From a virus (taxonomy: Duplodnaviria > Heunggongvirae > Uroviricota > Caudoviricetes): DNA of 28,707 bases. The stretch is from the IMG/VR virus record IMGVR_UViG_2778261009_000004; one strand, written 5' to 3'. The translations under genes and the position numbers were made by a program. The notes under the pieces are model-generated. The model did not search any database and was not told the DNA's origin. It worked only from the letters and a program-made list of their open reading frames with translations. This document shows positions 215 to 24,976 of this stretch, piece after piece (positions within the stretch are counted from its first letter, which is position 1; every line of letters starts with the position of its first letter).

Positions 215-3616
<3,402 letters not shown>

Positions 3617-3673
3617 TCACGCTCCATAAACGACAAAACCGCCCGCAGGCGGTTTCACATAAAACATTTTGCA

Positions 3674-4321
3674 TCAGCGGCCAATCACCACAACCTGACC
3701 ACCGTCCCCTTCATCTGCCGTGCTGATCTCCTGAGAAACCACACGAGACCCCACACGCATTTCACCGTACAGAACAGGCAGAACATTGCCCTGGGCAACC
3801 ATGTTATCCAGTGACGAGAAATACGTGTTCTGTTTGCCGTTATCTGTACTGGCTGCCGTGGGCGTCCTGGCTTTCGGTGCCAGCATCTGCGCCACACCAC
3901 CCAGGATCATACTGGCCCCTGCTGCATACAGACCCGATACAGCCGCGGCCCCCAGCCAGCCAACAGGGTTCCACCATGCCACCGCAATCAGCGCCGCACC
4001 CAGCACCGCCTGAAACACACCGCCACTTTTGGCACCCGCCAGACGCGGAACGACGTGGATCACGGCACCATTTGCCAGCGGTTCATTAAGACGGGCAGAT
4101 AATTCATTTTCGCCTGCATCACGCCCGGAAATGCGCACCTGATACCAGCCCTCATTCAGTTTCTGGCGAAACGACGGAAGCTGTGTGGCCAGCGCCCGGA
4201 TGGCTTCGGCCCCCGTTTTCACACGAAGGTCGATGCGGCGGCCAAATCGTTGTAAATCCCCGTAAAGGCAGATGCGTGCCATGCCCGGTGACGCCAGAGG
4301 GAGTGTGTGCGTCGCTGCCAT
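3674..4321 (-). CDS. I: Tail tip assembly protein I
   Basis: 215-aa ORF whose N-terminus (MAATHTLPLASPGMARICLYGDLQRFGRRIDLRVKTG) and C-terminus (SQEISTADEGDGGQVVVIGR) match lambda I as remembered. Its 5' end overlaps the 3' end of K by about 100 nt in another frame, as in lambda. Confidence 0.9.
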   Translation of the reverse strand: MAATHTLPLASPGMARICLYGDLQRFGRRIDLRVKTGAEAIRALATQLPSFRQKLNEGWYQVRISGRDAGENELSARLNEPLANGAVIHVVPRLAGAKSGGVFQAVLGAALIAVAWWNPVGWLGAAAVSGLYAAGASMILGGVAQMLAPKARTPTAASTDNGKQNTYFSSLDNMVAQGNVLPVLYGEMRVGSRVVSQEISTADEGDGGQVVVIGR

Positions 4322-4962
4322 TTGTCGGTATACCTCTCTCGTTTGCTCAGTTGTTCAGGAATATGGTGCAGCAGCTCGCCGTCACCACAGTAAATGGCGG
4401 CATGATTCGGCACCGATGAACCAAAACAGCACAGCAGCACATCGCCCGGCTGCGCCGCTGACAACGGCACCTGATACAGCCCTGTGGCCTCCAGATTATC
4501 CAGATAGAGATTCTGACCGTGACGCCACCAGTCATCCTCGCGATGAAAATCCGGCATCTCAATCCCCGCCAGATGGTAAGCATCCCGGAACAGCGTGTAA
4601 CAGTCCGTCACCCCGTGCTCAAAGCGCCGCCCGGTAAGATGTGGCACACAGCGGAACTTGTGAATCGCCCCCCGGCAGACCAGCCACCACGGCAAATCAC
4701 TCTGCACCTGCAGCCGCCGGTCGGCCTCACTCAGCCAGGGCAGACCACCGGGGTGGCTGTGGACCAGTGCCACAATCTCACCCTGCATCTCTGCCTGCAG
4801 CCAGTCCTCCGGAGCCATCCGGAAATAATCCTCCGGCTCACCGGAAATATTCACGCAGGGAAAATATCTTTCCCCCTCCGGCGCCCTCACCACGAAGCCG
4901 CACGACTCCGCTGGCGCACATCGCCGGGCGTGCGCCAGAATCGCTGATTCTGTCTCTGTCAT
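4219..4962 (-). CDS. K: Tail tip assembly protein K (JAB/MPN metallo-protease motif plus NlpC/P60-like domain)
   Basis: 247-aa ORF with HSHPGG...SEAD (JAMM-like) motif; located between L and I. Classical lambda K annotation is shorter (about 199 aa, from memory), which would correspond to a start near 4818. The longer ORF fills the gap back to L. Confidence 0.85.
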   Translation of the reverse strand: MTETESAILAHARRCAPAESCGFVVRAPEGERYFPCVNISGEPEDYFRMAPEDWLQAEMQGEIVALVHSHPGGLPWLSEADRRLQVQSDLPWWLVCRGAIHKFRCVPHLTGRRFEHGVTDCYTLFRDAYHLAGIEMPDFHREDDWWRHGQNLYLDNLEATGLYQVPLSAAQPGDVLLCCFGSSVPNHAAIYCGDGELLHHIPEQLSKRERYTDKWQRRTHSLWRHRAWHASAFTGIYNDLAAASTFV

Positions 4963-4967
4963 GGGAT

Positions 4968-5666
4968 TTACTGCGAAAGTTTGTTAATGGAAAGGAAGCC
5001 GCCAAAGTTGCCGACGTTATTGCGAAACTTACAGCCGCTCAGGCATTTGCTGCATTTATCCTTCGTGATATCGGACGTCGGCTGGTCATATTCATCCGCG
5101 ACCGCCGGACCGCTATAACCGCACTCATCGCCGCGATAGGTCCAGGTGCAGGTGTTGGCCAGCATGATACACCCCGGAAAAACAGAGCCATCCGTTTCAG
5201 TCGGTGTGGACAGTACAAAAGAGACACTGACCGCGCTCAGTTCGCTGCACTGCTCGATGCGCCAGCGGCTGATCACCTCCTGCTCCGGATCGGCTTCGCT
5301 GTTTCCGTTGACGAAGTTCACCGCATCCAGAAAACGGGCGTAAACCTTACGCCTGACCACCGTTCCGCCGACCAGACTCTGCAGGTCTTCCGCCATCCCG
5401 GTGACCATGCCGTGCAGGTTAGAGACCGTCAGTGTCGGACGGGCAGCACTGCCCTTACCGTTCAGTTCAAATCCCGTCCCCTGAATGGGATACGGCTGAT
5501 ACTGCCACCCCTGCCAGGTGACCGGCTCACCTTTTTCGTTCTGCTCATTACAGAAAAAATAACGTTCACCACCGACCTCTGTCAGATCGATTTCCCAGAG
5601 CACCACCTGGGCTGACTGAGTGAGGCGTGTCGTCTCATGATGTGTTTCCTGTGGAATATCCTGCAT
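4968..5666 (-). CDS. L: Tail tip assembly protein L
   Basis: 232-aa ORF, same length as lambda L; MQDI...VVLWEIDLTEVGGERYFFCNE...CxxC motifs. Confidence 0.9.
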   Translation of the reverse strand: MQDIPQETHHETTRLTQSAQVVLWEIDLTEVGGERYFFCNEQNEKGEPVTWQGWQYQPYPIQGTGFELNGKGSAARPTLTVSNLHGMVTGMAEDLQSLVGGTVVRRKVYARFLDAVNFVNGNSEADPEQEVISRWRIEQCSELSAVSVSFVLSTPTETDGSVFPGCIMLANTCTWTYRGDECGYSGPAVADEYDQPTSDITKDKCSKCLSGCKFRNNVGNFGGFLSINKLSQ

Positions 5667-5675
5667 CAGAGCCTC

Positions 5676-6005
5676 CTATGCCACGACCTGTTCAAAATCT
5701 GCCGTTATGGTTACCCACAGCGCCCCTACGCTTGCCGACCATTTACGACAAACCACCCTGATCGGCTTCCAGTCATAAGGTGGCGTCCACTGAAATGCGC
5801 GGACGCCACCGTGCCGTTCCAGAAAGGCTTTTAAAGATGGGTGTTCACATTTACGAACACGTATCGTCACGCTGTAAGTCGACAACTGGTTATTCAGTCC
5901 CGCCGCACGACGCTGTTCATAACCATCGCCCAGCTTCACTGTCACCACTTTCGGCTCTGATACCACATTCATATCCGGGCGCACTTTCCAGTGAAACGTC
6001 TCCAT
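5676..6005 (-). CDS. M: Tail tip protein M
   Basis: 109-aa ORF, same length as lambda M; FxWKV N-terminus and FEQVV C-terminus. Start overlaps the H stop by 1 nt. Confidence 0.9.
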   Translation of the reverse strand: METFHWKVRPDMNVVSEPKVVTVKLGDGYEQRRAAGLNNQLSTYSVTIRVRKCEHPSLKAFLERHGGVRAFQWTPPYDWKPIRVVCRKWSASVGALWVTITADFEQVVA

Positions 6006-9000
6006 TACCGATATGCTCCACTTAACCGACCACCATCACGGGCCTGCTGTTGCATAAAGTCCGCTGCCGCTTTTTTCCCAAGGTCATAAACCACCTTCAG
6101 GGCAGCCGGACCTATCTGCCCGTTCGTGCCATCGTTATTGATCTCGATGTTGTACTGCGGGGCAAACATCGCCATACCTGAACCACCAATATCCGCCACA
6201 ACCCCCAGCTTACCGTCAGCACCACGACGCAGAGGCAGAATGGCTTCAGGTCCCGCTTCACCCATCACACCCGCGCCTTTTGCAAAAGCAAAAAACGTCG
6301 GACGGTTAACCACCGTGCCACTGTAACGACTCAAATCAGCAGACTGATAAATCCCCCCATTGGCATTCAGGGAAAGGCTGCTGAGATCAAATCCCAGTAC
6401 ACTGCCAATCCCTTTTATCGATTTCATCATGGTTGCCTGCGCCAGGATTTTCGCCATATCTGACAGCACAGAAGAGGTGAAGGATTTGAAATTGAGTTTG
6501 CCGGTAGTGACAAAAGTTGCCAGGCCATTTCCCATGTTGCTGAAGGCTGACGAGAACACCTGTTCTGCTGTTCCTGCCGTATTATCTGCATCCACGGTAA
6601 AATCCTGAAATGCACGCAGGACTCCGTTTTTCCAGTTACCCTGCACAACTTCAAGCTGTTGCCAGTAACGGCGATTCTCATTCAGTTGTCGGTTCAGGCT
6701 CTCCGTCAGCGCCTGCTCGGCCTTTCTGTAGTCATCCGTGTTATATGTCCCTTTCTGCTCACTATCCCGCCTCAACTGCTCCAGCTGTTGCTGGTATTTC
6801 TGGCGAAGACTCAGTTGTACCTGATATCGCTGCCGCTGCTGATCACCCATACCCACCGTGGCGATATCCAGGTCATGTTGCTGACGCTGAGCGCGCTCTT
6901 CTTCAGCCAGTTGACTGGTCAGCTGAATTGTTTTTTTCTTCAGATCGTTGAGTGCCGTCTGTTTCTGAAGCTCCTGCTGTTTTACATCCAGCAGCGTCAG
7001 TGCCTGAATCAGTTCATCTTTACGGGCCAGCACACTCTTTTCATCTGCCGTCAGTTTTTTCCCGTCCAGATCGCTGATGCGCTGCTGCAGAGCCAGAAGC
7101 TGTTTATGCGCTTCTGTCATCTTTTCAGTGGCAATGCCTGCTGACTGTCTTGCAGCAGCAATCTGTCCTTCCACCTGTGCCTGTTGCTGACTGTACTGCA
7201 GCAATAACCGGGTGGCCTCATCATTACGGGTTTCGCGTGTTTTTTTCTTACCGGATGCCAGGGCTTTCTCGTAACGTTCATTTTCACGTTGTATCGCTGC
7301 ATCCCTGACAGCCTGATCGGCGTACTGCATGGAATTAATACGCGCAATTTCACGCTGATGTCGTGCTGCTTCCGTTTCATTCATCCGGTTCAGTGCAGCA
7401 TTTTCAGCATTACGTCGTTTCTGTTGCTCCTGATAATTCCGCTCTGCCTGCTCTTTTGCATCCTGCAAATCCTTCTTGCGTTTTTTCTCCTGAAGCTCGT
7501 TAAGACGCTGCTGATCGTACTCAACCTGAGAAGATGATGCCGTCCAGGGGAGTCTTTTCGCCCGCGACACTTTCTCCTGTAAAGCGGAAATCTGTTCATC
7601 CAGCGAGTCTTCACGACCAATATTCATGGCCGCATCCCAGAAACGACTCCATAAATCAGACAGATACTTCAGCGTACTGCCCAGCGCATTGAGGTTATTA
7701 TCAATATCCGCAGTACGCCGACCGGTTTCCTCTGCCAGTGCAGACATGGCTATCCGTGCCGCATCACTGGACCGCCCCTGTTCCCCAAGGACGCGTATCT
7801 GCTCAAGCTGAGTGGCAGTAAGAAAATGCAGCTCATTGTCCAGAGCCTTCGCGGCATTTACAGGATCATCCTTCAGCCGCTTAAACTGATTTATGGTATC
7901 GCTGACCGACTGGCCAACCGATCGCTCCATCTGTGCGGCAGCTCTCGCCACCATACCGATATCGTTTCCACGAAATGCACCACTCCCCACCACCTGAGCC
8001 AGCGCACCGGCTGCAGCATGTTGCGTAATACCATTCCCGGAAATAGCACGACTGAGCGTCCACAGCTGCCCGGCAGTGACTCCGGCATAATGCCCCGTCA
8101 GCGACAACTGGCGGTTAAATTCTTCCCCCTCCTTCTGACCATCATACCAGGCTTTACCCAGACCATAGACGGCCGCGGCAATACCGCCAATAACCCCGCC
8201 CAGCATCATGCCTTTCGGTGACATCAGTGTGTCTATCCATCCGGCACGGTTAGCCAGCGTTATCCCGGATCCCCTCAGCGCATCTAAATTGCCGCGAGCC
8301 AGTTCACCTATCAGAACGCCTATCTCCTGGCGGGCCGCTGCACTTTTCAGACCCAGCGAATGCGTGGCTTTTCCTGCCTGCTCCATTTTGCGGATATACA
8401 CTTCTGCAGCACTGCTTACCCCCAGCTGGGCAGGCTTAGCACGAAGCAACTCAGAAGAAGAAAGATTCTGGCGGGTTGCCTGCTCTTTAAGCTGACGGAT
8501 AAACGCCACTTTCTGTCGGGTAGCCTCTGCCTCAGCCTGCGTAAGAACACCGGTTTTCGCCGTAACCTCAGAAATCAGCGCCAGATAATCCTGCTGACCA
8601 ATCCCGCCACTGTTTCTGGCCTGTCGGATCTGCTGCTGAATACGCTGTAATTCCTGCAGTCCCGCACTGGCCTGTTTCACACTGTCAATCTGACGATAAA
8701 ACGCGGCAGCCGCTTTATCCTGAGCCTCCGCCAGAGCCATGGCCTGCGCCTGTTCCTCGCGCATTTTCTGGCTCAGTGCCTCCATACGCTGGCGGGTTTG
8801 CTCCACCTCGCGGGCCATGCGTTCATGAGCCTGTGCGCTCTTCTCCACCGTCTGCGCATGGACGGATGCGGCTGTTGCAGCCGAAGAAGCCGCCTGCATT
8901 GTCTGCCGGGCGGCCTGAGTCTGACGCTCCATAAAACGCTGCATACGGGCAGAAGACCGTTCTGCATCGCTGGCTGCACCATTCAGAAGGTTTTTGATAC

Positions 9001-9070: not shown

Positions 9071-9769
9071 AACGCACACCTCCGGAAATACCTTCCCCAA
9101 GATGCATCAGTTCTTCGTCCGTTCGCTCCGGTATCCCGTTCTCTTCCGGTAAAAGGCTGAAATCAGCCACCGCAGCATCACTGCTACCGGACACCATTCT
9201 CACGATCAATGCCTTCAGCGAGGCAAACTGCGCATCCATCCACACATCACTGAAGCTCTGCATCCGGAAATAATCGCCCCACTCACCAAGCTCAGTGGCC
9301 GACATTTCCGACAGCATCCGCCGCCAGTCTGCCCGCCGGAACTCCCGGGCAAGCCGCATGACAAACTGCATTTCCCGCGTCAGGACTTTTCCGGCGTCAG
9401 CACCTCATGCTCCAAATCCCCGGCATTCTCAATGACTCCCATACCGCTCAGCGACAGAACCATCTCCGCCCCCGCTCCCAGGGCATCATACGACCATGTT
9501 GTAATAACGGATGCGCAAAGCGTCTCAACATCCTGAGACTGTTCCGCATTCCACAGTGAGCGGGAAACCAGCCAGGCATTGATATCCATCCCCATCCGCA
9601 GAAAAGCAATCTGTCGTTCAGCCTCCGGCAGTTCTCCCTCTTCGGCATCAAACTTTGCCGTTCGCTGCTGAACAAACGCCAGATATTCAATTCTCTGCAG
9701 CCCGGACAGCTCACTGAGCACCACGGACTGCTTTTCATAATTAAACGTGCCCTGTTTCAGAAACATCAT
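9042..9769 (-). CDS. T: Tail assembly chaperone G-T fusion made by programmed -1 ribosomal frameshift (T segment is 9042..about 9404 in the -1 frame)
   Basis: The ORF at 9042..9371 is in the -1 frame relative to G and stays open upstream to 9404, overlapping the last 8 codons of G. The G-frame sequence just before its stop is CTG ACG CCG GAA AAG TCC TGA, with GGAAAAG at the position of the lambda G GGA AAG slip site. Confidence 0.6.
9380..9769 (-). CDS. G: Tail assembly chaperone G
   Basis: Lambda G-like N-terminus MMFLKQG...LSELSGLQRIEYL from ATG 9769 with SD GGTGGAG. The track ORF start at 9808 would encode the terminator hairpin and is probably an artefactual extension. Confidence 0.85.
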   Translation of the reverse strand: MMFLKQGTFNYEKQSVVLSELSGLQRIEYLAFVQQRTAKFDAEEGELPEAERQIAFLRMGMDINAWLVSRSLWNAEQSQDVETLCASVITTWSYDALGAGAEMVLSLSGMGVIENAGDLEHEVLTPEKS

Positions 9770-9826: not shown

Positions 9827-10576
9827 TTAACCTGCGGCGCTGACAGCCACCGCAGCCACTGCCACAAAATCGCCGTCAGAAGTCATGCCCACAATGCTGA
9901 CACTGCCCTGCTTCACGCCTTTCACCGTGGCCACAAGCCCGTTCAGGGTCACCGTGGCAGTCTGTGGATCTGTCGAATGCACACTGATCGCTTTGTCACT
10001 GGCTCCGTCAGGTTTTACTGTAAAGGTCAGCGTGGTGGTTGCTCCCACTTTTACACTGGCAGATGCCGGTGCCACCGTCAGCCCGGTAACGCTCACTGTT
10101 TCAGTGCCTTCCTCTGCCAGATACGGACGCCCCACACCGCTGATTTTCACTGTGCGGGTCATCACGTCTTTTGAGGCAATGGTTTTACCCAGTGAGCTCA
10201 GCCAGCCACGGAAAACATCAACAGTGCCGTTGGGATATTTGATACGAAACGCGCAGACTTCACCGGAGTCGAACAACTGAACCAGTTTTTTCTGCCCGCT
10301 GTCACCCGGACGCCAGGCCAGCGTCGCCGAAGTATCACCGACGGATTTCTGCCCCTGGGTTGTCGTTTTCCAGTCTGCATCTTCATCATCGAGATAAGTG
10401 TCATCTTCTGCATCAGCGGTCATTTCGCCAGGTTGCAGATCCTTCACCATCGCAAGACGCAGCCAGTCAGTGTCCGATAAAGGGTTCGCAAACGCATCGC
10501 CCTTGCCGGTGTACATCCAGAACGTCGTTCCCGCACCTTTCGTTTTTGCCAGTGGATTTGGTGTGGTCATTGCCAC
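9827..10576 (-). CDS. V: Major tail protein V with C-terminal Ig-like (Big_2-type) domain
   Basis: 249-aa ORF in the V position (lambda V is about 246 aa); C-terminal ...VTGLTVAPASASVKVGATTTLTFTVKP... Ig-like repeat. Confidence 0.9.
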   Translation of the reverse strand: MAMTTPNPLAKTKGAGTTFWMYTGKGDAFANPLSDTDWLRLAMVKDLQPGEMTADAEDDTYLDDEDADWKTTTQGQKSVGDTSATLAWRPGDSGQKKLVQLFDSGEVCAFRIKYPNGTVDVFRGWLSSLGKTIASKDVMTRTVKISGVGRPYLAEEGTETVSVTGLTVAPASASVKVGATTTLTFTVKPDGASDKAISVHSTDPQTATVTLNGLVATVKGVKQGSVSIVGMTSDGDFVAVAAVAVSAAG

Positions 10577-11569: not shown

Positions 11570-11845
11570 TTACTCAATAAAGATCATTGGCTTACCGTTA
11601 AAACGTTCATGCCGTGTAACCGTCCATTGTTGTCCGTCATAAACAACGCGATCCCCGCGCCGTGGGCGGTATCCCGAAGAAAACACCACCAGAGAGACCG
11701 CAGGTCCGGACAGAGCATTCAGCTCTGCCAGTGTTTCTCCCGGGATCACAGTCATATCGACATCATTAATCGAGGCTGTCTTTCCCATCTTTCTAACCGT
11801 GATAGCATCCATACGCGCTGCCAGCCGGGAAAAGGGATCAGACAT
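11570..11845 (-). CDS. Head-tail joining protein (FII-like)
   Basis: 91-aa ORF; N-terminal MSDPFSRLAARMDAI and ...RRGDRVVYDGQQWTV resemble lambda FII motifs (MADFDNLFDAAIARA ... RRGDTLTIGEENFWV, from memory). Position immediately upstream of Z. Confidence 0.6.
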   Translation of the reverse strand: MSDPFSRLAARMDAITVRKMGKTASINDVDMTVIPGETLAELNALSGPAVSLVVFSSGYRPRRGDRVVYDGQQWTVTRHERFNGKPMIFIE

Positions 11846-12161
11846 TGAGTTTTACCGGCACTTCTTCTGCACTGGTTCCGGCATCTGCCCAGACAACCCC
11901 GACCAGCGGATCAGAGCCGCTGTTAGTCAGCTGAACTTTTCCGGACTTCAGATAAACCTTCTTACCCGTTTTCATGTCATCCGTTTTCAGCTTAGGCAGC
12001 ATAAACACACCTTCGGTCATGCCGTCGCCTGTTTCACCCTGTGGAATATCGGTCAGCGCCACCGCAAAAACATCGCCCACCTGCACCAGATCTCCGCTGC
12101 TGATGGCTGCACTGGCAACAATCGCCACCGTTTTTCCTTCTTCTACAAAATTCTTTGCCAT
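11838..12161 (-). CDS. DUF2190-like small capsid-associated protein (possible decoration/cement protein)
   Basis: ATG at 12161 (MAKNFVEEGKTV...) with SD GGAGA; small beta-rich protein immediately downstream of the major capsid gene. The track ORF is extended to 12206. Confidence 0.5.
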   Translation of the reverse strand: MAKNFVEEGKTVAIVASAAISSGDLVQVGDVFAVALTDIPQGETGDGMTEGVFMLPKLKTDDMKTGKKVYLKSGKVQLTNSGSDPLVGVVWADAGTSAEEVPVKLNV

Positions 12162-12247: not shown

Positions 12248-14206
12248 TTACGCCGTACATTTCACCAGACCGCGGTGATCAACTGGCGCGACACCGGCGT
12301 CAATACGCACTTTCGTTGTCACGCCATCCACACTGAAGCCCTCCATCTGATCAATATATGGCGTATCCACACCGTTGAGATAAGCCACTTCAATCGTATC
12401 GGAGCCTTTTGACGCAGCCAGGTAGAAGGTGGTCTGGCTGTTATCATCAAGACGAGGCTCTGCAATAACGGTCGCAAAATCTTTCACCGGGTTAATAATA
12501 CCGGCGTTAATGTCAGCCCCCTTGACACTTGAGGAGCGAATGACCTGGTTAGCAACAGACTCCATCGCCGTCGGTACCAGTACGAACGCAGGACGAATAT
12601 TCAGATGACGCTCCCCCTCTTTCTGAACGCGCATCAACTGGCGGGCTTTATCCAGCGATGCCACGTCCATTGCCGCGCTCTCCAGTACGTTTGCATGTTT
12701 CGCTTTATCGAACAGACTTACATTATCTGTGGAGATTTTCGGGTTAGACGTCAGAATGGCATAAACCAGATCGGCAATAGTGGATTTCGCCGCACGGCCC
12801 AGTTTCATCGGGACATCGGTCAGCATATTCAGATCATCATTGATAATGGCCTGACGGGTGATACTGAACAGCTCGCCATAGGTCGCCAGTGCAATAGTGG
12901 CCTGTTTATCTCCGGTGGTGACGTATTTATATTCCGCCCCTTCACGCACCTGACGTAGAGCACTGAAGCCCCCCATACCCACACGATGGGCAATTTTAAA
13001 ATCAGACAACTGACCTTTCCGCGTCCACTGTTCATAGGTTTCAGGGGCATCTTCCCAGCCCTGCAGAATGGCTTTGTTCGCAACATCCAGCAGAATATTA
13101 CCGAAGTCAGACGTACTGTGTGTGAACGCCGCACCGACCATCTGCATCGGGTTATAACCGGAAACCCCAATACCCCGTTCAGTTAGTGACATACGGGCAT
13201 ATTCACGCAGGGTCATCCCGTTGTAGACATTATCACGTTCGGTTTTTTCAAATCCGGCACGCGCCATCAGCGCCTGGCGAATCCCGTCCCCCACAAAATT
13301 ACCGTTACCGGCATAAATATGAGCCGGGGTATTTTTATTGGATGGCGTGGACTCGCGCCCCATCTCGTTCAACAGCTTTTCACGGGCCTGCTCCAGCGAA
13401 CATTCAGGATCGGCAAGACACTGGGCCTGCAGCGTCTGATAACGCCCGCCAAACATGGCAAACAGATCATTAATACCGTTTACACGCGCTTTTTGCTCTG
13501 CCAGTACCTGCGCACGGATACTGTTTTCATCCACCACGGGTGCTGCTGCCTGCACTGGCGTCCGGGAGGCTGCAGGTTCATCATCCTGTACGCGTGGAGC
13601 ACTGTTGCGTGGCGGAGTAATCATGTTTCGAATGGATTCCGGCATCTTTTTAAATTCCTCTGTACGTTTTGACTGAATACATGCCATTGCCTTAACGGCT
13701 GGTGTCACCTGATCAGCAAATCCCTGTGCCAGACATTCGGCACCGGACATCCAGGTCTCATCCGCCAGCATGGCAGCAATTTCATCGGTGGTTTTCCCGG
13801 TTTTCTGTGCATAAGCGGGTAACAGAACCGCCTCAACTTTATCGAGCAGGTCGGCATAGGTGCGCATGTCCTCCGCATCACCGCCCGTAAAGCCAAATGG
13901 TTTATGAATCATCATGAAGGAGTTTTCCGGCATAATGACCGGGTTTCCCACCATCGCAATGACCGACGCCATTGACGCCGCCACACCGTCGACATAAACG
14001 GTAATGGACGCACCATGTGTTTTCAGTGCATTAAAAATGGCGATGCCTTCAAAGACATCGCCACCCGGTGAATTAATATGGAGATTAATGTGGGTGATAT
14101 CGCCCAGTGCATTCAGATCACTGATAAACTGCTTCGCTGTAACACCCCAGAAACCAATCTCGTCATAAATATAAATATCCGCGTCACTCTGGTGACCTGC
14201 CTGCAT
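12248..14206 (-). CDS. Prohead serine protease (ClpP/S49-like) fused in frame to a scaffold-like linker and an HK97-fold major capsid protein
   Basis: One uninterrupted ORF. N-terminal part DIYIYDEIGFWGV...INSPGGDVFEG...MMIHKP is ClpP-like; middle is a charged helical linker; C-terminal about 330 aa has HK97-type capsid motifs (...GYNPMQ...ITRQAIINDDLNML...). First ATG after the portal stop is 14206; the track ORF start 14467 overlaps portal. Confidence 0.8.
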   Translation of the reverse strand: MQAGHQSDADIYIYDEIGFWGVTAKQFISDLNALGDITHINLHINSPGGDVFEGIAIFNALKTHGASITVYVDGVAASMASVIAMVGNPVIMPENSFMMIHKPFGFTGGDAEDMRTYADLLDKVEAVLLPAYAQKTGKTTDEIAAMLADETWMSGAECLAQGFADQVTPAVKAMACIQSKRTEEFKKMPESIRNMITPPRNSAPRVQDDEPAASRTPVQAAAPVVDENSIRAQVLAEQKARVNGINDLFAMFGGRYQTLQAQCLADPECSLEQAREKLLNEMGRESTPSNKNTPAHIYAGNGNFVGDGIRQALMARAGFEKTERDNVYNGMTLREYARMSLTERGIGVSGYNPMQMVGAAFTHSTSDFGNILLDVANKAILQGWEDAPETYEQWTRKGQLSDFKIAHRVGMGGFSALRQVREGAEYKYVTTGDKQATIALATYGELFSITRQAIINDDLNMLTDVPMKLGRAAKSTIADLVYAILTSNPKISTDNVSLFDKAKHANVLESAAMDVASLDKARQLMRVQKEGERHLNIRPAFVLVPTAMESVANQVIRSSSVKGADINAGIINPVKDFATVIAEPRLDDNSQTTFYLAASKGSDTIEVAYLNGVDTPYIDQMEGFSVDGVTTKVRIDAGVAPVDHRGLVKCTA

Positions 14207-14219
14207 CCTGAACCAGGAA

Positions 14220-15728
14220 TTATTCTTCGGACTGGTCGTCGGTGTGCTGCGGCTCCTGTCGTTTCGTTGCGGCACTGCTGCCTCCTTTATCACTGGCCGG
14301 ATCGGTATCAAATACCAGATCCAGCTTGCGGTTTTCATCAATTTCGGCCTTGCGCCGACGTTTGACATCATCCGGATTACGACCACCTGCACGTACCCAG
14401 TCTGATTCTGTCGCCGCTCCACCACGAATCTGAATTTTCCAGGCCTCAGCCTCCTTAACAGGGTCAATCCACGGCATCACCGGTCCGGAATACACCGCGG
14501 TATACAGTGAAGAACGATCAAGATCGCGGGGTAGCCTGATAACACCGGATGCCACAGCCTGTTTCAGCCAGGCACGATACATCGGGCGGGTGACGGCACC
14601 AATAAACCAGTCCTGCAGGATCAGGTAGCCATCAGTGGATTCAACCAGCTCCTGACGCTGGGCGCTGTAAGTGCCGTTATAGTTGCGTGCCGTACTGGAA
14701 AAACTCAGACGACTGCCCGCCGCCACGGCACGCAACTGACCATTACGAAAAGTTTCAAGGTTAGGATTGGGACGATCCGACTTCACCATTCCGATTTCTT
14801 CGCCGGGTTTCAGATCGTCGTAAATAATGCCTGGCTGAATGGTAAGCTCGCGTTCATTCTCCTTGCTGCCATTACCATCCGGTTCATAGCTCTGCCCGTC
14901 GCCTTTCCGGATGTACATCCCCAGAGCAGCGGCGATCCTTGCTGCAGTCAGCTCAGAATCTTCATACTCTTTCAGGGCACTGAGGCGGATCAGCACACCG
15001 GACAACAAAGACGTCCCGCGCATCTGGTGCAGACGGCGAACAAATTTAAGATGCAGCATTCGCTCTGCATCCACTTCTTTGGTTTCCATCTGCCGCCCGG
15101 ATACGGGACGGCTTTTATACACCAGATATTTTTCGGGACGCCCCCAGTCATCAACAAACACGCCCTGATTCAGCCTGTTGCTCTCATCACTGGTCATGGG
15201 AATAAAGTCCGGCTCGAGCGCCTCCAGCCAGAAATGAACACCGGCAGAAGGCGTCAGGCTGTTTATGCGCCCGGAAACCATCTGGGCAAACACCTCACCA
15301 TCGCGCAGCCAGGTACGCAGCATCAGACGTTCCAGCATCGGACGGGTAAACTGCCCGGTGACTTCCGGACTGACAGACCATTCACTCCATCGGGTGCGTA
15401 TCTCCGCTGCCAGATCACGGGCAATGGCCCCATTGCGTAATACCGGATGTGGCTCGACAATAATCCCGTTTTTCCCCACCACCCGTTCTTCCAGCTTGTC
15501 AAATACACCAATAACCAGATCGTGGTTGTTATCAAGGTAACGGGCCTGCTCACGTAACGACACGGCCCCGTACTGGCTTAACTGGTCGGCAGTTCGGTTT
15601 TCCCGCCGGGCTTTGTGTGTCCGTGTCGTTTTTACGGCCTCATAAGCCTGGATCACCGCACGGGAACGCAGCCTTGCCGCTTTCCATCCTGGTGAAAAAA
15701 CGCCAATCACATCATCAAGAATTGCCAT
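14220..15728 (-). CDS. Portal protein (lambda B-like family)
   Basis: About 500 aa, located between the W-like gene and the protease-capsid gene; acidic C-terminus. ATG 15728 overlaps the W stop (TGATG); the track start 15800 is a longer extension. Confidence 0.85.
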   Translation of the reverse strand: MAILDDVIGVFSPGWKAARLRSRAVIQAYEAVKTTRTHKARRENRTADQLSQYGAVSLREQARYLDNNHDLVIGVFDKLEERVVGKNGIIVEPHPVLRNGAIARDLAAEIRTRWSEWSVSPEVTGQFTRPMLERLMLRTWLRDGEVFAQMVSGRINSLTPSAGVHFWLEALEPDFIPMTSDESNRLNQGVFVDDWGRPEKYLVYKSRPVSGRQMETKEVDAERMLHLKFVRRLHQMRGTSLLSGVLIRLSALKEYEDSELTAARIAAALGMYIRKGDGQSYEPDGNGSKENERELTIQPGIIYDDLKPGEEIGMVKSDRPNPNLETFRNGQLRAVAAGSRLSFSSTARNYNGTYSAQRQELVESTDGYLILQDWFIGAVTRPMYRAWLKQAVASGVIRLPRDLDRSSLYTAVYSGPVMPWIDPVKEAEAWKIQIRGGAATESDWVRAGGRNPDDVKRRRKAEIDENRKLDLVFDTDPASDKGGSSAATKRQEPQHTDDQSEE

Positions 15729-15940
15729 CAGAACCTCGCCAGCCGGTACCCGGGATGCCCCCGTCGTCGTGTAATCAGAGCCGCAAGGCGGCGCTCCCAC
15801 TCCTGCCGTCCCTGCCGGATCTCAGATAAGTTTTCCATGGTCATCTGCTGACCATTAAAGGTGACGGATTTTCCGTCCAGCACCGCCATTTCAGCTTCCG
15901 TATAACGCTGAATCATGGCTTCGATATCATTCTGGTTCAT
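15728..15940 (-). CDS. Head-to-tail joining protein W-like
   Basis: About 70 aa; C-terminal ...LITRRRGHPGYRLARF resembles the lambda W C-terminus (...RRRGPAGFYV, from memory). ATG at 15940 overlaps the terminase stop (ATGA). Order terminase-W-portal as in lambda. Confidence 0.7.
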   Translation of the reverse strand: MNQNDIEAMIQRYTEAEMAVLDGKSVTFNGQQMTMENLSEIRQGRQEWERRLAALITRRRGHPGYRLARF

Positions 15941-18039
15941 AACCATCCTCCGGAAGTCAGCCAGGGGTTAACATCGTCAGTTACTGTTTTCTTCCGTTTT
16001 TGTTTTTTAACAGGCGTGGATACCGGTTCCGGTGTGGGTGACGGTTCGGTACTGTCCGGGACACACTCCAGCCAGGTTTCCCGGCTCGCCCACTCCGGTG
16101 CATCCGGCCAGCGGATCTTTTCGTATCCATGCAGAATGACCAGAGCCTCGGCATACACCATCAGGTCAAAAGCTTCGTTGGCACCGCGACCCGGCTTACT
16201 CCATTTCCCGTCACTGCTCCGCTCTTCATACGTCAGTTCGTCGTAAAACCAGCTCCCCAGCCAGTCAGGGAAATGCACATAGCCGGGACCTGGCGAGTCA
16301 CGCCATAACGCGTTATTCACCCGGTCTTTCAGGGCATCCGTCTGAAGAAGCCAGAGCGGCACATGACCTGCGGCCTGCGCCCGGCGGCCCGTTCGTCCGG
16401 TGTTATCAGGGAATGTACGGCTGATCAGTTTTGCGCGCCGGATGCTGTCACCCTTAAACAGGTAAATACGTTTACCAAGGCCATCACGACGGCAACGACG
16501 CCAGAATTTATAGGCATTATCAGTGACCCCGTCTTCACCGCCGGAGTCCACCGCCATTGCCATCAGTCGCATTTGTTGAGAAGGATCGGAGGCCAGCGGC
16601 CAGCTTTTATGAAAAACATCCGTCAGCAGGACATCCCAGTCTTCCGGATAGCTGGCCGGATCAATTCGCTGGCTCTCCCCGTCGCTGTCACCGCGCAATG
16701 ACTGCGTGATGTTGTAACGATCAATAATCCAGCGTTCGCCACGGCTGCCATAGCCCGTTACCTGAACCACAAAACGGCGATGACGTCCCGCCTGCACATC
16801 CACTGTCGCCACAAGGAAATTAACGCCATCCGGCACACTGCGGGAAGGAACTGGCTCTGCCCGCTGCTCAAGCAATTCACTTTTTCGTTGCTCCATGCTG
16901 GCGCGGGGAAGATAAGGTAATCCCCAGTCGGTATTGATAACCGTCTTGAGTGTCTCTTCACTTCCGGTTGTCTCGTATTCCTGTTCTGCAGTAAGCAGTT
17001 TGTAAACGAGTTGCGAGAGTGTCTGATAAGCAGCTGCCGGACCCTCCATCCAGAATGACGCAATACGTGAACGCCGGGGATCACCATAACGACTGCCATC
17101 TGCATTGATGGATTCACCATCCCGTAACCAGACCCCACGTCCGTTCAGCTCGCGTTTTTGTTCAGGCAAAATCCGTCCTGAACAGGAAGGACACTGAATA
17201 TAAGCCGCCTCACTTGCCAGCACAGGATCGGCAATATCACGGAAACCAGCAACCACATCGCCGCAGGGCTGAAAATACTCACCACAGTGTGGACAGGGCC
17301 AGTACCAGCGACGGCGATCGCCACGGTTATAGAGCGACAGGATCCCCGTGGTTGGTGGAGCCTCATGCGGTGAAGTCCGTCGCCATTTCACATCCTTCAC
17401 ATCCCTGCCGGGGGAACTCTCCACCAGCGTCATACCACTGGACATAAATGTGGTGGTACGTTTTGAGGCAAGAGAGAAGGCATCCCCCTCACCATCAATA
17501 TCTTCCGGAAAACGGTCATAATCCGTCAGCGCCACGCATTTATAATCTGATGAAGACATGATATTGACTGACGGCCAGCCGATTTTCAGGTAGTTGCCAG
17601 CAAGGACTGTTCTGTCATAAACGTTGTTGTCATTTTTGTTCGGACTCAGGCGACTGACCACTTCCGGGCTGACGCGAAACGTTCTGGCGAGTCGTTTTTT
17701 GGAGTGTTCGCGGGCTTTTTCCTCCGTCATCTGAATGATCAGCATATCAGCAGGATCGCAAATCACGTTGTAAATCACCCAGCCGTCAATCAGGCCGATA
17801 GTCTTGCCGGTTCGTGCCGGGCCAACAAATATCACTGCGTCGTATTCACGCGAGGCCAGGCAGTTCATAGGCTCAATAACATACGGTGCCACCAGCGGAT
17901 CCCACGGGACTGAGTTCCCTGCCCCCATAGGCACCCGCATATACTGAGCAACGGCATCAGCAACCCGCATTCGTCTCGGTGCGCGAAGGATATAACCTGA
18001 ATCGGTTCGTGCTGCCTTTGCGGTTTCCTGATTCAGCAT
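15937..18039 (-). CDS. Terminase large subunit (GpA-like)
   Basis: 700 aa; Walker A VIFVGPARTGKT; Cys cluster CPHCGEYFQPCGD...CPSCSG; start overlaps the small-subunit stop (TAATG). Confidence 0.9.
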   Translation of the reverse strand: MLNQETAKAARTDSGYILRAPRRMRVADAVAQYMRVPMGAGNSVPWDPLVAPYVIEPMNCLASREYDAVIFVGPARTGKTIGLIDGWVIYNVICDPADMLIIQMTEEKAREHSKKRLARTFRVSPEVVSRLSPNKNDNNVYDRTVLAGNYLKIGWPSVNIMSSSDYKCVALTDYDRFPEDIDGEGDAFSLASKRTTTFMSSGMTLVESSPGRDVKDVKWRRTSPHEAPPTTGILSLYNRGDRRRWYWPCPHCGEYFQPCGDVVAGFRDIADPVLASEAAYIQCPSCSGRILPEQKRELNGRGVWLRDGESINADGSRYGDPRRSRIASFWMEGPAAAYQTLSQLVYKLLTAEQEYETTGSEETLKTVINTDWGLPYLPRASMEQRKSELLEQRAEPVPSRSVPDGVNFLVATVDVQAGRHRRFVVQVTGYGSRGERWIIDRYNITQSLRGDSDGESQRIDPASYPEDWDVLLTDVFHKSWPLASDPSQQMRLMAMAVDSGGEDGVTDNAYKFWRRCRRDGLGKRIYLFKGDSIRRAKLISRTFPDNTGRTGRRAQAAGHVPLWLLQTDALKDRVNNALWRDSPGPGYVHFPDWLGSWFYDELTYEERSSDGKWSKPGRGANEAFDLMVYAEALVILHGYEKIRWPDAPEWASRETWLECVPDSTEPSPTPEPVSTPVKKQKRKKTVTDDVNPWLTSGGWL

Positions 18040-18533
18040 TACTCCTCCTGCTGTAATTCCTCCTCATCATCCGCACCTGCTTCAGTCACCCGCAGGGCTA
18101 TCTGATCGCGCAGATCATCAATAATGGACTGAACACGGCTCACAGCGGCAGGCTGCAGACCGCAGTCACGTTCAAGAATATCCGGTAATGTCTCCAGCAC
18201 CTGCACGACCGCTTTTGCCCAGATGGCAAACTCCCGTCTGACATCACTGGCCGGAATGAGTTGTGCCGTTTCCTGTTCGAACTTAAGACGCTCACGTTCA
18301 GACTGATACCAGGCTTTGCGCTCATGCGCGTCCATTTCGCCTTCTGCAACCGGCGGTGGTAATGCCAGAAATGCCGACACAATATCAACCACCCGATAAA
18401 GCTTGAGGTTGCTTTCATGCCCCCCTGCAACGGGTAGATTTTGCAGCCTTGCCGCAGCAGTCTGGCGATGTACACCTGACAATGCCGCCAGTTGACTGAT
18501 ATTCAGCGTCAGATTTTTTAACTCTCGATCCAT
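18039..18533 (-). CDS. Terminase small subunit (Nu1-like, N-terminal HTH)
   Basis: 164 aa; N-terminal LNISQLAALSGVHRQTAAARL helix-turn-helix and acidic C-terminus; immediately downstream of the cos-like site. Confidence 0.8.
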   Translation of the reverse strand: MDRELKNLTLNISQLAALSGVHRQTAAARLQNLPVAGGHESNLKLYRVVDIVSAFLALPPPVAEGEMDAHERKAWYQSERERLKFEQETAQLIPASDVRREFAIWAKAVVQVLETLPDILERDCGLQPAAVSRVQSIIDDLRDQIALRVTEAGADDEEELQQEE

Positions 18534-19292: not shown

Positions 19293-19587
19293 TTTGTCGC
19301 TCCATTCGTTTGCTCTTCACTTGCGGCTAAAAATATAACGTCAAATCACTCAGCATGAAAGAGTGAAAGTTTCAGCGCGTTTCCCTTACATAATCTGTCG
19401 TTTGTATTCTCTTCAGGCATACCGGAAAGACTAGGTATTGTCACACAACCAATACCATCGACAATCGAGATTTATATCTATTCGGTAATGTTTAAATATA
19501 ACAAAACCCCGTAAAAACGAGGTTTATGGGTAATTTGTATTGTTGAATAGCATCTGATGAGAAATTGATGCTAATACTATAAACATG

Positions 19588-19764
19588 CTAGATTAAATCA
19601 ATCTTGATATCATAGCTTTCAAGACCAGTCATTTTTTCCCGTGCAGTAAACTGGATACTGGTAACTTCTTTCCCGGTCTTTTTCTTAAGCTCAATGATTT
19701 TTTTTGTTATATATTCAGAAATATCTGCTTCTGTTTTTGTTTTTAACTCTTCAATGTTCATCAT
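19588..19764 (-). CDS. gnsB: GnsB-like small protein (Gns family)
   Basis: Own translation: MMNIEELKTKTEADISEYITKKIIELKKKTGKEVTSIQFTAREKMTGLESYDIKIDLI, 58 aa, SD AAGAGGAA. Resembles E. coli GnsA/GnsB (about 57 aa, ...FTAREKMTGLESYD...). Below the track's size cut-off. Confidence 0.7.
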   Translation of the reverse strand: MMNIEELKTKTEADISEYITKKIIELKKKTGKEVTSIQFTAREKMTGLESYDIKIDLI

Positions 19765-19933
19765 TTCCTCTTTTAGTCTGTTATGACTGTCCTAGTACAC
19801 AGTAGTGTCAATTATATGGAGCAAACGTATAAAAGATAAGATGAAACATCGCAATAATCAACATACGACGGTCTAAATTTCACACAAACAGATAAAGATG
19901 ATTATCATTTATTATCAATGCATTAGAATCAAA

Positions 19934-20203
19934 TCAATTCAAGAGTCTCATTGCTGCTTCCAGAATTTCTTCTGAAGTTACATGTCGATCCGCTGCTACA
20001 TAAATGACTTTATGATCTCCGGTCAGAGATGGAAACCCTGCAGCCATTACAGTGAGGTGTGTTGTTTCGCCATTTGGATATTCACGCATGATGGTGTTAA
20101 CTCCGGTCATCACTGGCACTACCATTGCTGGTTCAGAGTTAAAAAAAACTATTATTTTTTTCATAATGTTACCGTAATATGTGAGTATCCATCGACTAGA
20201 CAC
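19934..20203 (-). CDS. Hypothetical protein (possibly YnfN-like)
   Basis: 89-aa ORF; an internal start MKKIIVFFNSEP... near 20164 is possible. Lies between gnsB and cspI, where Qin carries ynfN (from memory). Confidence 0.4.
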   Translation of the reverse strand: MSSRWILTYYGNIMKKIIVFFNSEPAMVVPVMTGVNTIMREYPNGETTHLTVMAAGFPSLTGDHKVIYVAADRHVTSEEILEAAMRLLN

Positions 20204-20212
20204 TAAGCAAAA

Positions 20213-20232
20213 AAGCTCCCGAAGGAGCCTTC
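20213..20232 (-). terminator. Putative terminator downstream of cspI
   Basis: Minus strand GGCTCC-TTCG-GGAGC followed by TTTTTTGC. Confidence 0.35.
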
Positions 20233-20435
20233 ATTTTCACTTTCTTAAATCTAACGACAGATGGCTAACATTTAAGTATTGTGAAATATTATCAAATGTA
20301 ATCATCATTGATTTACAAAAGATACATTTTGCCCCGAAAGGATTTCTGTCAGAAACATCAAAAGATGATGTTCTATACTGAGAACCATGGCAACACGGGC
20401 ATCTAAAGTGAATATGGTTTGTAATATTTTCTACC

Positions 20436-20651
20436 TCAAAGTGCCACTACATGAACAGCTGCAGGGCCTTTAGGTCCGTTCTCAATACCAAATTCGACTT
20501 CCTGATTCTCAGTTAACGTTTTGAAATCGTTGCTCTGAATAGCTGAGAAATGCACAAACACATCTTTGCTACCATCTTTCGGCGTGATGAAACCAAAACC
20601 TTTTTCAGGGTTAAACCATTTCACTAAACCAGTCATTTTGTTAGACATCAT
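20436..20651 (-). CDS. cspI: Cold-shock protein CspI
   Basis: (M)[70 protein letters not shown], matching E. coli CspI as remembered. Confidence 0.9.
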
Positions 20652-21011
20652 TATTACCTTTTGAAGAAGTTAGCCCTTGGGCAGAATGGTCCGAAAAAAA
20701 ATATCAGAGAGAAAAACCAACAAGGAAATCTCAAGAGGTACAAATAATAAAATTATAACAATGACTGCTTCAGATAATTTTGTAACAAACCAGAACACCA
20801 TTAACGCATGATTAACCAACCATAGCAAGGATTACTTTTGTAAAGAAAAACACACGAATGAAACAATAGCTTTATTTATTAATAAAACGTGTCATTTTGT
20901 CTAATGACCTTTTATCTTACCCTTAAGATTTCAAGGATTTTGACTCATGGAAGAGTCCTTTTTATTTAAATTTCACATTCAGCGCTAAAAATAATCCGAT
21001 TTAATATTAAT

Positions 21012-22039
<1,028 letters not shown>

Positions 22040-22350
22040 AGATATTTATGATGAGGACGCTCGTGCTTATTGGCAGGATTTTCAATCTTAAAGGAGTACT
22101 GATGCTGCAGATAAGACTCAACTTTTCTGACAATTTTTCTGCTACTTCCAGGAAGACTTGCCGGACGCTCATTCTGGCTGCTGCCTCATAAAACTCCAGC
22201 GTAGCTCCTTCAACACGGTCCATGGCGACATCCAGGCCAAAAATTTCACCGTCAAAGCGTTCTTTGTCCTGTAAGGCTACAGTTACCGTAACTTTATTCT
22301 CAAAATTACGGACTCCTTTCACAACCAGTTCATAGTCTTGAGTCATTGGA

Positions 22351-22566
22351 TTATTCTCCTCTCGCAGCCTTACGCCTGTCTTCTTTAATCTTGAAATAAA
22401 GATTTGTCAGATACGTCAGCAGGCCAAAAACCAGGCTACCCAGCACACCGATTGCAGCCCACTGTGACGGAGTTACTTTATCGAGTAACTGCAATGCCCA
22501 GAAACCAGCATTACCCGCCGATGTGCCATAGGCAACACCTGTTGTTAACTTATCCATTGATTTCAT
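22351..22566 (-). CDS. Class II holin / pinholin (S21-like) with dual-start motif
   Basis: [28 protein letters not shown]...[35 protein letters not shown]: two transmembrane segments, MKSMDK dual start (antiholin/holin), SD GGTGAGGA. The track ORF extends to 22641. Confidence 0.85.
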
Positions 22567-22785
22567 ATCCTCACCCCGATGTACACGGATGGTGCAATAT
22601 GTTTGAAAAGATCGGAGTCTACGGGGTAGTTTTGACAGCACACGTTGTTCTCAACGGCGCTAAAAAAACATACACATTAAAAATGTGGGTAATTATTTTG
22701 AAAGAAAGTCATATATAAAATAATAATACGAGAAATGTTTTCATATTTAGTGTACTGTATACGGCCATTTATACAGGAAAAGCCT

Positions 22786-22956
22786 ATGTCAGAACGTAAA
22801 GACTCAAAATCACGCCGTAATTATCTCGTTAAATGTTCCTGCCCAAACTGCACCCAAGAGTCAGAACACAGTTTTTCAAGAGTACAAAAAGGTGCCCTTT
22901 TGATCTGCCCTCATTGCAACAAAGTATTCCAGACAAATCTTAAAGCTGTAGCCTGA
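22786..22956 (+). CDS. Small zinc-ribbon protein (moron; possibly YdfK/YnaE-like)
   Basis: MSERKDSKSRRNYLVKCSCPNCTQ...ICPHCNKVFQ: CxxC...CxxC. SD AGGAAA 6 nt upstream of ATG 22786. The track ORF starts at 22735. Confidence 0.5.
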   Translation: MSERKDSKSRRNYLVKCSCPNCTQESEHSFSRVQKGALLICPHCNKVFQTNLKAVA

Positions 22957-23019
22957 TTGATTTTATTAGTAACAAGTATTTTTTATATTTTAATAATATA
23001 TTTAAAGCAGATAATAAAA

Positions 23020-23037
23020 AACCCGCCTGAGCGGGTT
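23020..23037. terminator. Intrinsic terminator hairpin (mainly minus-strand orientation)
   Basis: AACCCGC-CTGA-GCGGGTT with an A/T run on the flanks; on the minus strand the hairpin is followed by TTTTTATTAT. Confidence 0.45.
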
Positions 23038-23319
23038 TGAGATTGTGGTGCTTTTTGTGGGAGTCATCCACTTACGCACTTTGTTTTGCGATGCCAGCAG
23101 TTAGCTTCTGCTGTGAAACTATTCATGCAGCAAACCTGCACTTCACCACAATGGTTAGCATACTTTTCCTGATTAAGATTTTGCCAAATATGCTGGCCAT
23201 TGTTTCATGTATTGGACCTCCTTACTTTTTATTAAAGAGATCCAATATTCAATACTCTGTCCGTATCTCTACTCAGGCATCAGCCTTCTTCGTTATCGTA
23301 TACAGACGAGCGATGAATT

Positions 23320-23535
23320 TTAATCAGTAATGATGACATTTGCTGCTGCAGGACCTTTAGCACCACTCTCTATAGAGAAGGTAACCTTTTGACCTTCAAA
23401 TAAGGTTCGATAATTATCATTCTGAATCGCAGAAAAATGCACAAACACATCTTTACTACCATCAACAGGAGAAATAAAGCCGAAACCTTTATCAGCGTTA
23501 AACCATTTTACTAAACCAGTCATTTTATTTGACAT
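23320..23535 (-). CDS. cspB: Cold-shock protein CspB
   Basis: [71 protein letters not shown], matching E. coli CspB as remembered. Confidence 0.9.
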
Positions 23536-23845
23536 TCTACATTCCTTAACTTGAGCCTTTCGGCATAAATGGTTTGCATAACAGAAACGACTTCGTACTT
23601 AATTGGAGAGACTCAAAGAAGGAATAAGTGAATAACACCTGAAATGAGAACTGCTTTAGTAAACTACTTCGTATATCGTCTGTTCTTCAAACCGACGCAG
23701 TCATTAACTCATAGTTGAACATATGAAGCAATGTTTATTTTAGACATCCAGCCACCTTCAACCCTATCAAAAAAGTAGTTTTCTCCAGGAACGTGTGTAT
23801 GGTGCACCAGGTTATCAGTATTAAGGAGTTTTTCTGTCCCCTAAA

Positions 23846-24050
23846 ATGACAGGAATTGTCAAAAACTTTGACTACAAAAGCAGCAAAGGTCTTATATTCC
23901 CATCCGATGGCGTATCGATGCCCAGCTTCACGTTTCAGCTCTCAATCTTCGAGATGCAGAAGAAATTACCACAGGATTACGCGTGGAATTTTGCCGGATA
24001 AATGGTTCGCGTGGACCTTCAACTGCCAATGTTTATCCCGGGATGAGATT
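23846..24050 (+). pseudogene. cspF: cspF/cspH-like cold-shock gene disrupted by a frameshift
   Basis: Frame 1 from ATG 23846 encodes the N-terminal cold-shock-domain motif [22 protein letters not shown] then junk until a stop at 23999. The rest of the domain ([42 protein letters not shown]) lies in another frame from about 23910. The frames switch at GATGGC|GTATCG, about 23909-23912. Confidence 0.55.
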
Positions 24051-24082
24051 CAATATCTCTATTGCCCCATTTAAAGCACAAA

Positions 24083-24102
24083 AACCCGCTTATAAGCGGG
24101 TT
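24083..24102. terminator. Bidirectional intrinsic terminator (candidate tR' for the late operon leader; also 3' of the cspF-like gene)
   Basis: AACCCGC-TTATAA-GCGGGTT followed by TTTTCTACTTTTTT on plus; on minus it is followed by a T-rich run. About 110 nt downstream of the Q stop. Confidence 0.5.
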
Positions 24103-24963: not shown

Positions 24964-24976
24964 GCTCGTTCTCCAC

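Follow-up and report, generated by a model that had tools for sequence, protein, structure and literature searches.

The gene described here is very probably the head-shell gene of an E. coli lambdoid prophage of the Gifsy-2/cdtI/mEp460 type. Its product is a fusion precursor of the NF045540 family, presumably self-processed, in which a single polypeptide comprises, in this order, a prohead protease of the ClpP type, a spacer and the domain of the major capsid protein. The core reading, namely that one polypeptide holds these three parts, had been put forward in a preliminary description of the window (the whole stretch of 28,707 nucleotides that was analysed, IMG/VR record IMGVR_UViG_2778261009_000004), and it was confirmed by Pfam, by NCBIfam and by a Gifsy-2 protein that is 69% identical. 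The novelty which that description implied could not be upheld, as the fusion has a family model of its own (NF045540), a precedent in Gifsy-2 and a match in 2125 of 5426 complete E. coli genomes (~39%). The prophage type is very common in E. coli, the gene is its ordinary head gene, and the architecture is already known.

From 14206 to 12248 the minus strand is open for 652 codons in the translation of the window, with the terminal stop alone and none internally; read on the plus strand, this interval contains many stops. According to the mechanical list of open reading frames, the minus-strand frame is open upstream as far as 14467, and the coding sequence probably begins within this extension:

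12248..14275, minus strand: probable complete coding sequence of the protease/scaffold-like/capsid fusion (675 aa plus stop, GTG start, 73.5 kDa; stop codon 12248-12250)
14281..14286, minus strand: perfect Shine-Dalgarno sequence AGGAGG, 5 nt upstream of the GTG at 14275

We regard the GTG at 14275 as the probable true start because it is preceded by AGGAGG, is used by PGAP in the 99.9%-identical gene of the E. coli 118UI prophage (a 2028-nt CDS), and adds about 23 N-terminal residues that are present in most database homologues; in addition, the alignment with Gifsy-2 shows that the motif NSW[FY] upstream is conserved while the position of ATG 14206 is occupied by Ile. The start-codon scan found no Shine-Dalgarno match of at least 4 nt for ATG 14206. 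The interval 12248-14206 of the preliminary description begins 23 codons after the GTG in the identical frame, so that the frame stands, the strand (which had not been given) is minus, and the start has to be moved, probably to 14275. Phage records of the fusion gene also differ in the annotated start (ATG or GTG) and in product names.

The claim that one uninterrupted frame, with no stop or restart, spans the domains agrees with the 652 codons free of internal stops. Such a long frame might be an artefact or a pseudogene, with a sequencing or assembly error or a recent frameshift joining separate protease and capsid genes, and singleton chimeric open reading frames do exist at this locus in the databases (portal+protease+capsid products of 1080-1135 aa, and fusions involving the terminase or tail protein L). 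The preliminary description had suggested that other assemblies be checked for a stop codon between the domains; the full-length gene was found in 2017 complete E. coli genomes, at a coverage of at least 80%, and in 28 phage records. Protein clusters with as many as 8230 members are just as uniform, with lengths of 648-690 aa and both domains throughout, and the same architecture is carried by the plaque-forming isolates Ayreon, mEp460, cdtI and Tritos. It extends to Gifsy-2 (69% identity) and to a Pseudomonas phage whose homologue is 56% identical, and a curated full-length HMM exists for it. As the full-length gene recurs in this many genomes, phage records and large clusters, a sequencing accident is next to inconceivable, and on these comparisons the artefact is effectively refuted.

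The curated model just mentioned is NCBIfam NF045540 (scaf_prot_MCP1, [quoted passage not shown]), which the protein matches with 986 bits (cut-off 475), residues 9-651 corresponding to profile positions 2-651 of 652; with protease and capsid domains in one open reading frame without internal stop, it is a member of this family. PHROG 133 also matches over the full protein length, and the score against NF045541 (scaf_prot_MCP2) was 402 bits, below its cut-off of 525. Over the whole gene, DNA identity is 98.7-99.9% to cdtI, mEp460, Ayreon, Tritos, phi458 and Qin-like prophages (98.7-99.3% for the five phages), and ~77% to several Stx2 phages and CP-1639. The window itself is collinear, at 95-99% identity, with the Qin-like prophage of E. 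coli 118UI, which carries hokD, rem, ydfU, an antiterminator, cspB/F/I, lysis genes, head and tail genes, and lom. As a discovery the fusion has little weight, having been published in 2010 and possessing its own NCBI family model, besides being present in so large a share of complete E. coli genomes.

In annotation the picture is uneven. PGAP names the product as a fusion protein in all 15 E. coli records among the matches listed. Phage records often label the gene only “protease”, “Nu3”, “head-tail preconnector protease C” or “Clp protease”, and a capsid-prediction study missed the HK97-fold major capsid protein for Gifsy-2. Recognition of the fusion and of its probable GTG start therefore improves annotation.

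The N-terminal part of the protein contains the following features (residues here and below in the numbering of the 652-aa frame):

13706..14182, minus strand: ClpP-related head-maturation protease domain, residues 9-167 (Pfam PF00574, NCBIfam NF045542)
13973-13975, minus strand: Ser78, in AASMAS, aligned with the ClpP catalytic Ser
13904-13906, minus strand: His101, in MIHKP, aligned with the ClpP catalytic His
13757-13759, minus strand: Glu150, at the position of the ClpP catalytic Asp, adjoined by Asp149

The motifs DIYIYDEIG and INSPGG, from which a “ClpP/S49-like” protease had been proposed, are present in the minus-strand translation. Only the ClpP (S14) half of that proposal held. Residues 23-168 match Pfam CLP_protease (PF00574) with E 4.6e-36 and 124.8 bits (gathering score 20.2), and solved ClpP structures (e.g. 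1y7o) align to residues 31-173, whereas the S49 SppA model TIGR00706 gave 21.8 bits against a cut-off of 155. Residues 9-167 pass the NCBIfam model NF045542 (Clp_rel_HeadMat, “head maturation protease, ClpP-related”) with 217 bits (cut-off 120). The cellular ClpP equivalog models were all missed (TIGR00493, 60 bits vs 308.6; NF011091, 60 vs 361), and the domain is therefore a phage head protease rather than a housekeeping ClpP.

The catalytic positions were mapped on what we take to be the E. coli ClpP sequence. Ser78 and His101 are invariant in an alignment of 16 homologues with identities down to 71%, and so is Glu150. Of the Ser-His-Asp triad the Asp was not found at the aligned position, which holds Glu150 instead; this may be a functional substitution. 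Such a replacement, together with scores below every cellular equivalog cut-off, might also be expected of a catalytically irrelevant remnant or of a host-directed ClpP-like moron, the precursor then being cut by another protease. We consider this very improbable, given that the catalytic Ser and His do not vary, that the head-maturation model is clearly passed, that stand-alone homologues of the domain occupy the protease position in hundreds of phages, and that the characterised genes of the head and tail shaft, from terminase to tape measure, include no other candidate for a prohead protease. We favour a head-maturation protease that acts on the precursor to which it is attached.

Between protease and capsid domain lies a region to which the preliminary description referred as a charged helical linker:

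13139..13702, minus strand: scaffold-like spacer, residues 169-356 (~190 residues), with no Pfam family
13532-13612, minus strand: Pro/Ala/Thr/Gln-rich stretch of variable length among homologues, about residues 199-225
13358-13531, minus strand: helical block DENSIRAQVLAEQKARVNGINDLF...SLEQAREKLLNEMG, about residues 226-283, from AlphaFold2 secondary structure

The helices were recovered, the helical block being the only region with pLDDT values of 63-83 in a model that was built on a shallow alignment and has a mean of 36. The charge is only modest (25% D/E/K/R in the spacer, 22% in the whole protein), and the Pro/Ala/Thr/Gln stretch is part of the region as well. The spacer also includes a stretch, MACIQSKRTEEFKKMPESIRNMITPPRN, that is conserved in the homologue alignment. 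A Pfam search of the spacer for a scaffold family returned nothing below E 0.04.

A second family of fusions (NF045541, PHROG 4523; Ralstonia phage YO122_2 and a Silvanigrella phage) shares homology over spacer and capsid domain, beginning at about residue 197-201, while its N-terminal protease is a different one, weakly Peptidase_S78-like. As spacer and capsid domain are homologous across fusions with different proteases, the spacer appears to belong functionally with the capsid domain. This argues that the two form one functional unit to which different proteases have become attached, much like the delta domain and capsid protein of HK97.

Kinship of the spacer with the lambda scaffold protein Nu3 was considered as evidence and rejected: hhalign gave a non-significant match (E 0.075, probability <1%), BLASTP found no match, and a post hoc shuffle test gave a signal for the window (p ~0.03) that was not repeated in Gifsy-2 (0.10) or the Ralstonia phage (0.53).

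Nested lambda C/Nu3 is also the precedent for a different reading of the gene, in which internal initiation at Met188 (window 13645) produces a protease-less scaffold-capsid chain and only a minority of subunits carry the protease. The Met188-Pro189 pair is invariant in 16 enterobacterial homologues, and in the window as in Gifsy-2 it is preceded by GAGGA at a distance of 10-11 nt. This Shine-Dalgarno match is weak (4-5 nt), however, and GAGGA is there because of conserved Glu-Glu codons; the motif is also missing in the 56%-identical Pseudomonas homologue. Internal initiation is for these reasons improbable in our view. An extended version, in which a start at Met188 tunes the protease dose per procapsid and the helical block is truly homologous to the Nu3 scaffold core, is a conjecture from the sequence to which we likewise give little credence; if true, the homology of helical block and Nu3 would mean that the head types of lambda and Gifsy-2 are related by descent. 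Our preferred reading remains the full-length chain, with one protease and one spacer per capsid subunit.

The remainder of the protein was predicted to be an HK97-fold capsid domain, and the profile searches bear this out:

12251..13138, minus strand: major capsid protein domain, residues 357-652 (Phage_capsid_4 / Mu gpT-like)

Residues 357-649 match Pfam Phage_capsid_4 (PF25209) with E 1.4e-54, and a second match in the C-terminal domain is to the Mu-like gpT family (PF10124, E 3.7e-8). Both the Phage_capsid_4 and the Mu gpT families have the HK97 fold. A profile of five capsid-domain sequences matches the solved chains 8rkx/8rkc, annotated “Bacteriophage Mu GpT domain-containing protein”, with E 8e-10, and 9jod (“major capsid protein”) with E 2.8e-4; with the single sequence, a PDB search matched the N-terminus to ClpP alone and the C-terminus weakly to Mu gpT. 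AlphaFold2, run on a shallow alignment of 15 sequences that are all at least 75% identical, produced an unusable model (mean pLDDT 36, pTM 0.22, ~25 in the capsid region), and the assignment of the fold and of the helical scaffold is therefore based on the profile matches, which place the domain in the HK97-fold capsid families. An indel-prone loop (~residues 290-297) is situated between the helical block and the conserved segment AGNGNF...RQALMARAGF.

Two neighbouring genes complete the head region around the fusion:

14220..15728, minus strand: portal gene, lambda family (PF05136; PGAP coordinates), its 3' end overlapping the GTG start of the fusion gene by 56 nt
11838..12161, minus strand: gene for a head decoration/cement protein (DUF2190 / Phage_cement_2; PF09956, E 1.4e-20; a 324-nt CDS in PGAP), directly downstream of the fusion gene and at the same position in Gifsy-2

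The relationship to lambda proved more intricate than a non-lambda head joined to an almost pure lambda tail, as had been suggested. The terminase belongs to the gpA family and the portal to the lambda family according to Pfam, albeit at low identity: in a tblastn comparison of every lambda head and tail protein with the window, A is 25% and B 21% identical. Nu1, W, C, Nu3, D, E, FI and FII had no match in the window at E<1e-3. The fusion protein itself gave no significant hhalign result against gpC (E 0.075) or gpE (E 0.21), and homology to a lambda-type head module (S49 gpC/Nu3 plus gpE) was not detected by tblastn, TIGR00706 or hhalign. In the tail, identity to the lambda counterparts is no more than 25-56% for Z, U, V, G, T, H and M (G and T 33-38%, H 25%, M 56%), and it is only L (92%), K (97%), I (78%) and J (89%) that reach 78-97%. 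The slippery heptamer GGGAAAG of lambda G/T is absent at the G-T junction of the window.

Lambdoid phages are mosaic, and the window is no exception. Lambda DNA 12965-18461 aligns to window 6143-657 at 89.5%; near-lambda DNA starts at ~6143, within the 3' end of the tape-measure gene, from where it extends over the tail tip. Outside this block, the remaining tail genes, the terminase and the portal are distantly related members of the lambda family and closer to Gifsy-2 (64-74% DNA identity). As the near-lambda DNA begins inside the tape-measure gene, the mosaic joint is located within the tail module and not at the head/tail border, so that of the proposed head/tail mosaic the mosaicism stands and the position of the joint does not.

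Combining these data with the Gifsy-2 literature and with general knowledge of HK97 and lambda, we infer the following course of head assembly. The 73-kDa precursor would assemble on the lambda-family portal through its C-terminal HK97-type capsid domain to form a T=7 procapsid, with the spacer and the attached protease facing the interior of the shell. There the spacer would act as the HK97 delta domain or the lambda Nu3 scaffold does, until the enclosed Ser78/His101 ClpP-type protease domains digest both the spacer and themselves. The mature capsid protein left behind would have a mass of about 32-39 kDa, because the capsid model begins at residue 357 and the indel-prone loop lies further upstream, which would also bracket the cleavage site. 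The shell would then expand as the gpA-family terminase packages DNA, and the expanded shell would be stabilised by the DUF2190 cement protein from the adjoining gene. The earlier suggestion that each subunit brings its own protease and scaffold, and matures by proteolysis, agrees with the Gifsy-2 literature and would fit this scheme. A capsid subunit carrying its own scaffold and protease makes the family an attractive and under-studied model.

The gene has its described precedent in the “tripartite capsid gene” of the Salmonella phage Gifsy-2, which is cited as Effantin et al. (2010, Virology 402:355, PMID 20427067). The protein of the window and Gifsy-2 STM1034.3n align over their full length (residues 18-674) with 69% identity and 83% similarity, and by sequence the former is found to be an ortholog of the tripartite gene product. 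In both, a ClpP-like protease, a central region of ~200 residues and a capsid domain follow in that order, and both share the gene order terminase, small ORF, portal, fusion gene, cement protein, PF13856 protein and Z-U-V-G-T-H. Gifsy-2 differs in its host, in being a sequence variant and in the length of the Pro/Ala/Thr/Gln stretch; it also has 8 additional residues inserted ahead of the capsid domain, and in the tail-tip genes the window is much closer to lambda than Gifsy-2 is. Effantin and co-workers reportedly divided the product into a ClpP-like protease at the N-terminus, a middle domain of ~200 residues that might serve in scaffolding, and the capsid protein at the C-terminus; the HK97 capsid protein and lambda gpD are said to have been fitted into their cryo-EM maps. 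The genes of cdtI, mEp460, Ayreon, Tritos, phi458 and the Qin-like prophages show essentially no difference beyond annotated start and product names. In later literature the Gifsy-2 capsid is listed as T=7 and is credited with a trimeric decoration protein, and a paper citing Effantin et al. (2010) describes mEp213/LLS-type phages in which such heads are combined with lambda-like tails.

More remote fusions are organised along similar lines. Those of the NF045541 family (Ralstonia phage YO122_2, Silvanigrella phage) have the same Phage_capsid_4 domain and a homologous spacer, but differ in the protease, which is not ClpP-like. In actinobacteriophages, “capsid and protease fusion” is a routine label in several clusters (Arthrobacter and Microbacterium phages).

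The C/Nu3/D/E region of lambda has the same order and roles as the window, namely portal, protease, scaffold, decoration and capsid. Lambda also joins protease and scaffold, Nu3 being nested in C, and both phages use a decoration protein. The lambda protease, however, is of the S49 family, and the capsid protein E is encoded on its own and comes from another capsid family, while the window has a single ClpP-type fusion; the statement that lambda encodes C/Nu3 and E separately, and the window in one polypeptide, is correct by gene comparison and by the Pfam and NCBIfam domains. The arrangement is also reminiscent of HK97 gp4/gp5, where, as proposed here, the scaffold function is contained in the capsid precursor and removed by the prohead protease. 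The HK97 capsid family belongs to the HK97-fold group, as does the capsid family of the window. The HK97 protease, in contrast, is of the S78 family and encoded by a separate gene, whereas that of the window is ClpP-type and covalently attached; and where the HK97 shell is cross-linked, the phage of the window encodes a cement protein instead.

The window is a lambdoid prophage of the Qin family whose morphogenesis module is intact, since the collinear prophage of E. coli strain 118UI carries Qin-prophage-like cargo beyond the terminase genes (window ~19450-27010). The cargo genes in 118UI comprise hokD, rem, ydfU, an antiterminator, cspB/cspF/cspI, essD, a lysozyme gene, rzpQ and gnsB, and identity between the two sequences falls to ~95% across window positions 19451-24035.

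Within the tail module there is a sharp mosaic joint (window ~657-6143). A stretch with 89.5% DNA identity to lambda begins inside the tape-measure gene, at its 3' end, and extends across M, L, K, I and J, while the tail genes upstream of the joint encode proteins with 25-56% identity to those of lambda. The tail tube protein, which like lambda gpV bears a C-terminal Big_2 Ig-like domain, is encoded as follows:

Window 9827-10576, minus strand: major tail tube protein, lambda gpV homologue (55% identity)

The gpG homologue ends in ...CCG GAA AAG TCC TGA (window 9365-9410, minus strand), and this end lacks the lambda slippery heptamer GGGAAAG; a gpT homologue nevertheless comes after it.

One small reading frame carries names that do not fit its surroundings:

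Window 11570-11845, minus strand: 91-aa ORF matching Pfam PF13856

The family is called 'Gifsy-2' and described by Pfam as 'ATP-binding sugar transporter from pro-phage', while PGAP names the product 'DNA breaking-rejoining protein'. Both look like misannotations. As the ORF is flanked by the genes for the cement protein and for the gpZ homologue, a head-tail joining protein is the more likely role, judged by position.

The start of the protease-capsid fusion gene differs between annotations (window 14206-14286, minus strand). An ATG at 14206, the start used by the examined phage records of cdtI and mEp460 and by the preliminary description, gives 652 aa, and the GTG at 14275 chosen by PGAP gives 675 aa. 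A perfect AGGAGG is found 5 nt upstream of this GTG, and the CDS starting there overlaps the final 56 nt of the portal gene in another frame.

The helical block of the spacer between protease and capsid domains (window 13358-13531, minus strand) was aligned by hhalign to the segment ITAAVAAENSRIMGILNCEEAHGREEQARVLAETPGMTVKTARRIL of lambda Nu3 (gpC/Nu3, L003:5132-5737). The alignment of this block to Nu3 was not significant (E 0.075), BLASTP of the spacer against Nu3 gave no match, and a shuffle test, chosen post hoc, gave p ~0.03.

In six database singletons (P0033, P0034, P0067, P0006, P0064 and P0061; 751-1135 aa) the fusion protein is further extended by portal, terminase or tail-L domains. 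These are probably due to indels at overlapping gene junctions or to assembly artefacts rather than being real bigger fusions.

Fusions of 660-697 aa occur in two other phages:

L005:2329-4422: fusion gene of a Ralstonia phage
L006:1428-3410: fusion gene of a Silvanigrella phage

In both, the capsid domain is Phage_capsid_4, as in the window protein, and the spacer is homologous to that of the window protein, but their N-terminal protease is unlike that of the window and weakly Peptidase_S78-like (NCBIfam scaf_prot_MCP2 type), so that one scaffold-capsid unit has been combined with proteases of two unrelated folds.
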